Shown: piece by piece, positions 23,056-24,000 of the stretch
Layout of the letters: each line of letters starts with the position of its first letter
How positions within the stretch are numbered: position 1 is the first letter of the stretch
Assembly (NCBI GenBank): GCA_018675335.1
Contig: JABGYH010000001.1
Coordinates: 162,908 to 186,907 of the forward strand
From: Candidatus Woesearchaeota archaeon
Lineage (GTDB): Archaea > Nanobdellota > Nanobdellia > Woesearchaeales > UBA11576
Direction: 5' to 3'
Length of the DNA stretch: 24,000 nucleotides
Position numbers and translations under genes: made by a program
Notes under the pieces: model-generated
What the model saw: the letters and a program-made list of their open reading frames with translations, nothing else
Told to the model about the DNA's origin: nothing
Database searches by the model: none

Positions 23056-24000
23056 TTATTTAGGAGGAATATAGTAAATTGGTTTTCCCGCATTATCAAA
23101 CAAACCTTTTTCTTTTGTTATTTTTGATTTAAGTATGTCTCCAGTTCCACCAGAGTTAAGCCAAGAGTCATATCTAACATAACCTTTCCATGTCCATTTC
23201 CTAATTGTTTTACCCAAATTTACTGCTTTTTTCAAGTAAGCATTCTCAGATAATTTACCATAGCCATGTTTCCAATAATGATATTTGAAAGAATCCTTTG
23301 CAGTATCAAACGTTCCTTTATTCCATTTCCATGCAGAACTCATCGGAGCTTTCACAACATTATTTCCTGAAAGAACTGTATTTCTTGCAGAAGACGACGT
23401 ACTTTTTCGAATTCCCGCCACAATATCATCCACCGAATTTAATGCTTTTGCATTTTTGTAAGTAACACCGGGCAAAGTTGCACATACTGCCAACAATTCA
23501 TAATCTGACTCAGACAGGGTTTCTTGTGAAAATAAAGTTTGATGTGTAAAAGTAGCCCAAACATCAGAAATATCTCCGCTAACAGGTAACATTTCTAAAG
23601 TATTACCAATAAAATCCATAACAGGTGCAACCGCATCAGCAACAGTGGTGCCAAAATCCATCACTGAATTATATGCATCTCCCGCAACATCTGCAACATA
23701 ATTGGTTGCATCTGTAACAGTATCAACAACTGAGTCCCACATCGCACCAATAGAAAAATGTCCTGATGGATCAATGTATTTGTAGGGATTGTTTTTTACA
23801 TAAGAATATTTATTTAGTGACTGAGGATTATAAACTGAAGGAATTACTGAATCAGGTTGAGTAAATTTTCTTAAAAAAGGATCATAATATCTTGCGCCAT
23901 AATAATAAAGTCCTGTTTTATCAAGTTCTTTTCCAGTGTACAAAAACTTTTCATCCCCTCCAAAAATTACTGCACCAAATGGCAAGTATCTTGTTTCTTC
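23056..24000 (-). CDS. RHS-repeat protein, 3' end only: RHS-associated core plus a 233-aa variable C-terminal toxin-like domain; the 5' part lies beyond the window
   Basis: The frame is open to nt 24000 (EETRYLPFGAVIFGG...). Core signature: FLYTGKELDKTGLYYYGARYYDPFLRKFTQPDS...NKYSYVKNNPYKYIDPSGH. The downstream sequence has no YD repeats. Confidence 0.88.
   Translation of the reverse strand, partial: EETRYLPFGAVIFGGDEKFLYTGKELDKTGLYYYGARYYDPFLRKFTQPDSVIPSVYNPQSLNKYSYVKNNPYKYIDPSGHFSIGAMWDSVVDTVTDATNYVADVAGDAYNSVMDFGTTVADAVAPVMDFIGNTLEMLPVSGDISDVWATFTHQTLFSQETLSESDYELLAVCATLPGVTYKNAKALNSVDDIVAGIRKSTSSSARNTVLSGNNVVKAPMSSAWKWNKGTFDTAKDSFKYHYWKHGYGKLSENAYLKKAVNLGKTIRKWTWKGYVRYDSWLNSGGTGDILKSKITKEKGLFDNAGKPIYYIPPK
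23059..23757 (-). other. Variable C-terminal (putative toxin) domain, family unassigned
   Basis: An acidic V/D/T-rich linker (WDSVVDTVTDATNYVADVAGDAYNSVMDFGTTVADAVAPVMDF) is followed by a globular region with the His/Lys-rich motif DSFKYHYWKHGYG and a W/K-rich C-terminus. Confidence 0.5.
23758..23772 (-). other. DPSGH motif, the predicted core/toxin boundary (DPxGL-type autoproteolysis site)
   Basis: gatccatcaggacat on the minus strand encodes D-P-S-G-H at the end of the RHS core. In characterised RHS/TcC proteins the aspartyl autoprotease cleaves just after this motif. Confidence 0.6.

Follow-up and report, generated by a model that had tools for sequence, protein, structure and literature searches.

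A polymorphic-toxin tip of a new family, with no immunity gene beside it, on a small RHS protein of a Woesearchaeota archaeon

At one end of the 24,000-nucleotide (nt) stretch of Candidatus Woesearchaeota DNA analysed here (contig JABGYH010000001.1 of assembly GCA_018675335.1, positions 162,908–186,907; called the window below, and the source of coordinates unless another locus is named) lies the 3' part of a gene for a small RHS protein. The C-terminal tail of this protein is a polymorphic-toxin tip, and no immunity gene is found beside it. The minus-strand open reading frame (ORF) in question, 23056..>24000, runs out of the window and has its stop codon at 23058–23056. Read along the coding strand, the parts of this ORF, the spacer behind it and the giant gene that follows are these:

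23758..23988, minus strand: RHS repeat-associated core (end of the YD shell plus plug), matched by TIGR03696 and ending in DPSGH
23611..23757, minus strand: acidic V/D/T/A-rich linker, tail residues 1–49, predicted to be helical (sequence; single-sequence AlphaFold2)
23386..23610, minus strand: divergent PT-TG-like pre-toxin module, tail residues 50–124 (LPVSGDISDVW...TLFSQETLSESDYELL...LPGVTYKNAK), placed by phmmer matches to homologues that pass PF14449
23362..23385, minus strand: short Ser-rich connector, tail residues 125–132, leading into the low-confidence first ~12 residues of the toxin part; unconserved in alignments A1 and A2
23059..23361, minus strand: C-terminal toxin domain, 101 amino acids (aa) as aligned, basic, with a conserved core from the Trp at 23323–23325
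23266..23280, minus strand: H-Y-W-K-H with the candidate catalytic His pair, H28 = H397 (23278–23280) and H32 = H401 (23266–23268), numbered in the 101-aa domain and in the 470-aa protein, respectively
22966..23055, minus strand: A+T-rich spacer of 90 nt (~90% A+T), between the stop codon and the ATG of the giant gene
16684..22965, minus strand: giant partner, 2093 aa, secreted and TcB-like by its Pfam and NCBIfam domains, with PDB matches to Rhs shells and to TcdB2-TccC3

The same window codes for the archaeal forms of GatD (TIGR02153, gatD_arch, 481 bits) and GatE (TIGR00134, gatE_arch, 688 bits), both far over the cut-offs, as well as for CDC48, TruD and adenylate kinase, and its G+C content is 30%. 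The producer is an archaeon with a very small genome (~0.56-Mb contig), and appears to be DPANN-like. An identical copy of the toxin gene lies on a contig of 609 kb. Polymorphic toxins have been reported as generally absent from archaea, a few methanogens and haloarchaea excepted (PMC3482391).

The visible part of the ORF opens in an RHS core. TIGR03696 (NCBIfam Rhs_assc_core) matches visible residues 5–81 with 72.3 bits against a cut-off of 32.5, and this core ends, directly before the variable tail, in the autoproteolysis-type motif DPSGH (23758–23772; D at 23772, H at 23760–23758), a DPxG ending. The tail itself is F82–K314, 233 aa (23757–23059). A first-pass annotation, made from the sequence alone, had placed the 233-aa tail after DPSGH and the 90-nt ORF-free spacer correctly, and the strings it quoted (DSVVDTV... 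in the linker, DSFKYHYWKHGYGKLSENAY, RKWTWKGYVRYDSW and GKPIYYIPPK) are all present. Its term ‘orphan’ for this domain is misleading, for the tail is no displaced cassette but closes a complete protein with its own signal peptide, encoded in a conserved cluster of three or four genes. The full-length product (P0001), of 470 aa, begins with a signal peptide and goes on through ~120 aa of YD repeats, a YHPDHLGS (PF03527) motif and the core to the tail. Its core aligns to the terminal core of the TccC3, YenC2 and Rhs structures in the PDB, with residues 128–237 falling on the terminal core of TccC3 and residues 35–236 on the last 200 aa of an Rhs cage. The several hundred residues of YD/RHS repeats that would make a closed cage are not found in this polypeptide, which has only the ~120 aa. 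We call such proteins mini-RHS proteins; in three genomes they are 427–470 aa long, each with its own start and signal peptide. Copies identical or 99% identical to P0001 occur in four assemblies and, because of these copies and of 19 relatives of the tail, the ORF is taken to be a real gene and not a chance ORF. When metagenome and genome collections were scanned for loci with P0001, distant RHS proteins (Anoxychlamydiales, Pseudoalteromonas) were all that came back. The tips vary as expected of polymorphic toxins: the N-terminal 240 aa of P0001, P0002 and P0011 are alike (47–60% identity), and their pre-toxin or toxin modules differ. P0011 has a PT-TG module as in P0001 with another toxin, and P0002 has a toxin as in P0001 behind another pre-toxin module.

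The anatomy of the tail emerged from its distant relatives. Searches of Pfam, NCBIfam and PDB sequences with the 233-aa tail gave no match, and a word-indexed homologue search gave nothing; phmmer, run exhaustively against 1.8 billion representatives, brought up the 19 relatives, in two hit sets that cover tail residues ~50–124 and ~112–233. The tail is thus divided into a linker, a PT-TG-like pre-toxin module, a short Ser-rich connector and a toxin domain of ~95 aa, and the earlier description of a linker plus one globular part falls short, as the middle of the tail is a module of its own. Only P0010, a repetitive acidic protein, shows any similarity to the linker, which single-sequence AlphaFold2 predicts with low confidence to be one long helix (residues 3–54; pLDDT of the whole-tail model 41, unusable). 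The linker and PT-TG module together have an isoelectric point (pI) of 4.05, and the toxin domain one of 9.9. Tail residues 50–124 match P0004 (E 3e-8), P0008 (E 2e-5), P0005, P0006 and P0011 by phmmer, and the matching stretches of P0004 and P0008 pass PF14449 (PT-TG) with 28.6 and 26.8 bits, respectively, against a cut-off of 23.5. All five proteins run on into unrelated C-termini. Because homologues that pass PF14449 carry other C-termini, the middle of the tail is read as a divergent PT-TG module and not as part of the toxin; the membership of the window copy is one of transitive homology between sequences. Its position, between RHS core and toxin, is that of a PT-TG module.

The remaining, C-terminal part of the tail belongs to a family that we could delimit at 63 proteins (profile search, E<=1e-3), none of which (0/63) has a Pfam toxin domain. 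Unnamed, absent from Pfam and with ~60 members, this toxin family is new. Its signature reads W-x-K-G-[ST]-F-D...[YH]-H-[YF]-x-K-H-G-x-E-V-G-A...Q-Y-[LV]-R-K-A-E-x-F...G...R-Y-x-K-N-G-K...I-[IV]-S-F-G. In alignment A2 H28, Y42 and A46 are invariant (101-aa numbering), and W13, G16, S24, H32 and G35 are conserved in at least 90%. The two His of YHYWKHG, to which the first-pass annotation had drawn attention, are H28 and H32 and are thus invariant or nearly so in the family; both are also invariant in the joint alignment with the 8EY4 family described below. Members sit at the C-termini of proteins with PT-HINT domains (P0009, P0030, P0032 of Paenibacillus durus, P0043) or RHS repeats (P0007). 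This position on bacterial RHS and PT-HINT toxins, along with a small gene downstream in all three (3/3) of the bacterial loci examined, bears out the earlier proposal that the tail is a polymorphic-toxin tip. The closest relative outside this archaeal lineage that combines PT-TG and toxin is P0003, on a groundwater contig (L003). Among 37 family members there were marginal matches to Ntox17 (best E 0.042).

The archaeal copies of the domain, in P0001 and in P0002 of a second archaeal locus (L001), keep W13, H28, H32, G35, Y42 and A46. They end in P[IV]YYIPPK (23059–23100 in the window, 6140–6181 in L001), whereas all other members end in [IV][ST]F[GW]: the Ser/Thr of the last strand has become Tyr (PIYYI in the window, PVYYI in P0002) and a Pro-Pro-Lys tail has been added. 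F49 has become Leu, and there is an insertion of ~7 residues. A stand-alone homologue of the domain was also seen, P0076 (134 aa; L002 4001–4405), with a lipoprotein signal peptide; its ATG overlaps the rtcB stop codon in an archease-rtcB operon, which may be chance or may reflect RNA repair coupled to a putative RNase.

One solved structure was recovered with this family. The Pfam search that the first-pass annotation had proposed gave no match with the tail itself, and it was AlphaFold2 with the family alignment, together with profile and Foldseek searches, that led to PDB 8EY4. Chain A of this entry, under the deposited name ‘PT-VENN domain-containing protein’, is the CdiA-CT toxin of E. 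coli O32:H37 in complex with its immunity protein. It was the best non-artefactual match of the toxin-family profile in the PDB (8ey4_A, E 0.004) and came first in Foldseek against the PDB (prob 0.87, TM 0.39–0.43); Foldseek against viral structures gave no meaningful match. We rebuilt the 8EY4 family by tblastn on plasmid records, and found it riding on CdiA, filamentous haemagglutinin and RHS proteins of Escherichia, Salmonella, Burkholderia, Rhizobium, Vibrio and Streptomyces. Comparison of the two families with hhalign gave 93.3%, E 2.8e-7, over 68 columns. In a joint MAFFT alignment, which spans the domain from end to end, W13, H28, H32 and Y42 are invariant and the S of ..SFG stands opposite the T of ..RTMF. 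By these sequence comparisons, the window-toxin family is a remote homologue of the 8EY4 CdiA-CT.

The two families share a domain length of ~90 aa, the H-x3-H motif (HYWKH in the window, HWTKH in 8EY4), an invariant W and second-helix Y, and a place at the very C-terminal end of polymorphic toxins, among them RHS proteins. They differ in that identity is ~15% and that the last-strand T (RTMF) of 8EY4 is Tyr in the window. In addition, the 8EY4 family is proteobacterial and actinobacterial, rides on CdiA, filamentous haemagglutinin or large RHS proteins, and is followed by small Cys-rich (CPCC or zinc-ribbon-like) immunity genes. Neither family has a Pfam model. In the plasmid loci L011–L018, the 8EY4-type toxins are followed by immunity proteins of the CPCC family or of a CxxCG...CxCCG type (~88–105 aa), the latter also having no Pfam model.

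The predicted fold points in a similar direction. With an alignment of 37 sequences, AlphaFold2 returned a model of the 101-aa domain (pLDDT 72.7, pTM 0.44; pLDDT <50 for residues 1–14) in which helices at residues 21–32 and 39–55 are followed by four beta-strands. The BECR fold consists of an N-terminal helical segment and a four-stranded meander (PMC3482391), and the predicted helices and ensuing four-strand meander of the toxin domain resemble it. Within BECR, the clade Ntox35 (PF15534) has two N-terminal His and a C-terminal S/T (Zhang et al., 2012; PMC3482391), and one His of the S. aureus Ntox35 is essential for killing (bioRxiv 10.1101/2025.07.24.666436); no immunity family is given for Ntox35 by Zhang and colleagues (PMC3482391). 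Our family recalls this description in its two conserved His in the N-terminal helical part, the Lys before the second of them (‘H, KH’), the family-wide C-terminal S/T, Sec export and occurrence on RHS proteins. The likeness is to the description of Ntox35, and we file the family under neither Ntox35 nor EndoU. The earlier guess of an RNase of BECR or EndoU type agrees in its first half with the predicted topology and with the remote homology to a CDI toxin, and fails in its second, EndoU membership being rejected for want of any Pfam or NCBIfam match. Judging from fold, motif and homology, the toxin domain probably works like a BECR-type RNase.

That no immunity ORF adjoins the toxin gene had been noted before, and closer inspection agrees. 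The minus strand of the spacer (22966–23055) has no ORF of at least 20 aa, and the only ORF that overlaps the spacer is one of 43 aa on the plus strand, over the start of the giant gene. A hidden or overlapping immunity ORF was considered and rejected, since the coding strand of the spacer is empty at >=20 aa and the internal out-of-frame ORFs, of 37–41 aa, are unsupported. In the three bacterial relative loci the small gene lies 17–30 nt downstream of the toxin gene and encodes, respectively, a YxiJ-family protein of 124 aa (108 bits, Paenibacillus) and proteins of 139 and 97 aa, the three being mutually unrelated. In L003 an ORF of 73+ aa begins 17 nt after P0003. No such small gene stands downstream in the related archaeal loci, where the gaps to the giant gene are 1 nt and 3 nt. 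Searches by tblastn with YxiJ, CPCC and other candidates found no homologue in the window or L001, and for seven Cys-rich (CPCC or zinc-ribbon-like) proteins no match there fell below E 0.2. The Cys-rich C-terminus of the giant was likewise tried as a fused CPCC-like immunity domain and rejected (tblastn E 0.53 over 14 aa). Because the related loci have the same layout and orthologous giants, having no immunity gene is a conserved trait of this cluster. Upstream of P0003, L003 has a gene of the Barstar family (24–410), which suggests an array of toxin/immunity cassettes in the organism concerned.

What follows the toxin gene is the giant, which the first-pass annotation had missed as a TcB-like shell protein without an RHS core and which alters how the missing immunity gene is read. 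Its protein has a signal peptide, SpvB-N (28.6 bits against 22), an FG-GAP and FG-GAP_3 propeller with a Cys/Asp-rich insertion of ~300 aa (aa ~440–700), TcdB_toxin_midN (96.9 bits) and ~800 aa of RHS/YD repeats (RHS_repeat 140 bits, 11 RHS repeats), and its C-terminus comprises Cys-rich modules, a beta-sandwich-like segment and a Ser/Lys-rich tail. Neither Pfam nor NCBIfam finds Rhs_assc_core, the PF03527 motif or a toxin tip in it. This is a TcB architecture, unusual in archaea and among RHS proteins alike.

The gene list of the source locus shows a divergent HTH_10 regulator, a 447-aa mini-RHS, P0001 and the 2093-aa giant. L001 has HTH_10, P0002 (427 aa) and a giant that starts 1 nt after its stop codon, and a third locus, on a 509-kb contig from the same sample, has HTH_10, a 454-aa mini-RHS, P0011 (458 aa) and a giant of 2050 aa that starts 3 nt after the stop codon. 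The order of HTH_10, one or two mini-RHS genes and a TcB-like giant is therefore common to three genomes, and the genes stand so close together that an immunity gene would not fit in. The window and L001 giants are orthologues, with 47% identity over 1765 aa, and signal peptides are found in P0001, P0002, P0011 and the giant. In the window, the spacer contains a T-rich, terminator-like tract after the stop codon and a TATA-like TTTATATTT ~25 nt before the ATG of the giant. A T-rich motif (TTAAGTTATTT[GT]AAT..TTTTTT, coding strand) follows the stop codons of both the giant (16650–16681) and the toxin gene (23018–23049); it may be an archaeal oligo-T terminator, in which case the toxin and giant genes would be transcribed separately here even though they abut in the relatives.

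Two known kinds of system invite comparison. Like the Tc toxins (TcdB2-TccC3, PDB 4O9X/6H6E; the ‘TcdB/TcaC’ class), the cluster has a giant with the TcB domain set, mini-RHS proteins with the TcC elements (PF03527 motif, RHS core and a variable tail after DPxG) and several C-like proteins with different tips for one B-like giant. Unlike them, both proteins have signal peptides, the C-like gene comes before the B-like one, the producer is archaeal, and what it carries as payload is a polymorphic toxin tip of bacterial type, with PT-TG. The mini-RHS is also short for a TcC, at 470 aa with ~120 aa of shell as against ~680 aa: a C subunit of ~680 aa that gives about half of the shell is not what we find, the mini-RHS offering ~200 aa of shell plus core. 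Neither the ORFs of the window nor the genes listed for the three loci include a TcA-like Pfam family. Tc toxins are not known to be flanked by an immunity gene, their payload being encapsulated and their target foreign. With Rhs/WapA toxins the cluster shares the RHS core, DPxG, a polymorphic tip and paralogues with different tips side by side, and from those modules it differs in having neither a cognate immunity gene nor a large YD cage in the polypeptide. It is unlike orphan rhs-CT cassettes, too, in the own start and signal peptide of proteins that are 427–470 aa long in all three genomes. The idea of an orphan rhs-CT cassette that recombines with the giant gene was rejected, there being no shared DNA repeat of useful length.

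On balance we favour, with more confidence than doubt, the account that the tail is an exchangeable toxin module of a Sec-exported mini-RHS protein, that its tip is of the RNase type, and that it goes without an immunity gene as its target is foreign. The RHS core would cleave itself after DPSGH and so release the tail, and the PT-TG module may aid release or entry. The toxin would then be a metal-independent, BECR-like RNase, for which sequence conservation and the structural model suggest the helix-borne His-x3-His pair H397/H401 as candidate acid and base. The signal peptides imply that the toxin would fold only outside the cytoplasm of its producer, and the weapon would probably be directed against some other organism, be it a host archaeon or bacteria, with an envelope or uptake route that the producer lacks. 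There would be no immunity gene because export precedes folding and because the target has that envelope or route. Producer resistance without immunity through envelope properties is known from the S. aureus Ntox35 work (bioRxiv 10.1101/2025.07.24.666436), and loss of immunity genes has been proposed for archaea that carry bacterial weapons (bioRxiv 10.64898/2026.07.27.741052).

Several points weigh against this account. The conserved Ser/Thr of the last beta-strand ([IV]SF or RTM in the families) is Tyr in the window, so that the archaeal version could be altered or inactive. The link to BECR depends on a model of moderate quality (pLDDT 72.7, TM ~0.4 to 8EY4), Foldseek matches to colicin D are weak (prob 0.23–0.33, ranks 25 and 47), the His are spaced i/i+4 as opposed to H199/H205 in S. 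aureus Ntox35, and no Pfam toxin model fits any of 37 family members (0/37), that of Ntox35 not even at E<=10. The PT-TG stretch of the window has no PF14449 match of its own, either as the tail or as its middle part, even at E<=10. A literature search found no activity for the window-toxin family or for 8EY4, and nothing of use on YxiJ. The RtcB-archease neighbourhood of P0076 was downgraded as a sign of RNA targeting, since that protein has a lipoprotein signal peptide, and it lends the account little. Finally, our inspection covered the genes next to the toxin, which leaves room for an unlinked immunity gene elsewhere on the 560-kb contig.

Other explanations deserve weight alongside this one. 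It is possible, if doubtful, that the cluster encodes a split, Tc-like cocoon, in which the mini-RHS is a drastically shortened TcC from which the open shell of the giant receives its final YD repeats, plug and toxin. The mini-RHS genes would then be alternative cartridges, and immunity would be needless as the toxin is encapsulated from folding onward, which extends the favoured account of a Sec-exported module. Such a division of labour is suggested by the TcB architecture of the giant, with neither Rhs_assc_core nor PF03527, and by a mini-RHS whose ~120 aa of YD repeats, PF03527 motif and core are too little for a cage of its own. On 4O9X the giant reaches 1736–1851 and the mini-RHS 2077–2190, and the unmatched remainders (~76 and 95 aa) are roughly complementary to the gap of 226 aa. 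Gene order and tight spacing (1, 3 and 90 nt) have been kept in three genomes although the giants are only 47% identical; this co-location could, on the other hand, mean only co-regulation by the HTH_10 protein. The N-terminus of the mini-RHS finds its best local match in the giant at the last YD repeats (1619–1701), but at E 0.013 this is a weak match, and alignments of YD repeats are promiscuous. With a signal peptide on each protein, assembly would have to take place outside the cell, unlike that of the known TcB-TcC complexes, and the lack of a TcA-like partner in the window and gene lists also tells against the idea. Somewhat less likely again, to our minds, is the fuller proposal of a two-piece, Sec-exported and immunity-free weapon, made of a TcB-like open surface shell and interchangeable TcC-like cartridges of ~450 aa, which bring the closing repeats, a self-cleaving plug and a bacterial-type, here RNase-like, tip, with a toxin that folds only outside the cell and inside the shell, is aimed at a host or prey cell, and perhaps frees RNA for a nucleotide-auxotrophic symbiont.

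A simpler possibility, which we regard as unlikely, is that the toxin stands alone and its immunity gene is unlinked, at some other place in the ~0.56-Mb genome, perhaps as one of the small genes upstream of HTH_10. Six uncharacterised small genes (90–310 aa) do lie upstream of the cluster on the source contig, and the putative immunity genes of the two toxin families are highly diverse (YxiJ, CPCC, unrelated), so that the absence of a recognisable homologue means little. Yet the three bacterial relatives keep their small gene close behind the toxin, no small gene near the cluster recurs at the same size or place in the three archaeal loci, no flanking protein of L001 has a homologue in the window, and tblastn showed no YxiJ or CPCC candidate in the window or L001. 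The least probable of the alternatives, in our estimate, is that the domain does not act, or has ceased to act, as an RNase toxin and either has another activity or target or, in its archaeal copies, has become inactive or been repurposed for binding RNA or a surface. With the domain altered or inactive, the loss of immunity would be accounted for. The change of S/T to Tyr, of F49 to Leu and the insertion of ~7 residues, all in both P0001 and P0002, speak for it, as does the rate of divergence, for the toxin domain of P0002 (L001) is ~48% identical to that of P0001 and the rest of the protein 47.7%, which looks like vertical inheritance and not arms-race swapping. Against it stand the six signature residues kept in both archaeal copies, the strongly basic character that the domain retains (pI 9.9), the complete architecture of core, pre-toxin and tip, and the neighbouring paralogues with different tips (P0011), as in an active polymorphic system.

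Some other genes of the window may be mentioned here. Convergent with the giant is a plus-strand gene (15532–16653) for a 373-aa protein with a C-terminal LysM match; the genes listed for the third locus include no counterpart, and the L001 contig stops short of that position. The first-pass annotation had used this protein to argue for a bacterial-specific target, an argument that hangs on a borderline match (21.1 bits against a cut-off of 20.9). At 6316–7596 (plus strand) is a gene for a CNNM, CBS and CorC_HlyC protein (TlyC/CorC type), a domain set like that of divalent-cation transporters; genes of this family have been called ‘pore-forming toxin’ in a DPANN genomics paper (PMC9723730). 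The 287-aa product of a minus-strand gene (10450–11313) carries an AbrB/MazE-type domain (30.9 bits) at its N-terminus, and divergent from that gene, at 11441–12331 on the plus strand, is a gene for a secreted protein of 296 aa, with a weak match, below the cut-off, to the Ca-binding domain of binary toxin B and anthrax PA (E 0.002).

The elements assembled at this locus are of known kinds (an RHS core, a PT-TG module, a small BECR-like toxin, a TcB-like protein), and what is new is the toxin family, its presence in a small-genome archaeon, and a cluster of mini-RHS and TcB-like genes that lacks immunity. Were the simpler explanation of an unlinked immunity gene true, the result would be a useful but modest annotation. 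As it stands, a complete bacterial-style tip, made up of RHS core, PT-TG and a small basic toxin domain, occurs in an archaeon, in a cluster that is consistently without the near-universal immunity gene. The family itself comes with two obvious catalytic candidates, and one related crystal structure (8EY4) whose function is apparently unpublished, and the mini-RHS may be a minimal TcC-like subunit, of interest for the use of Tc and RHS cages as delivery devices. Such a cluster touches on how episymbiotic archaea with small genomes attack or exploit their partners. A polymorphic toxin that is free of immunity also bears on the question of whether immunity serves self-protection during toxin synthesis, or only protection against kin.

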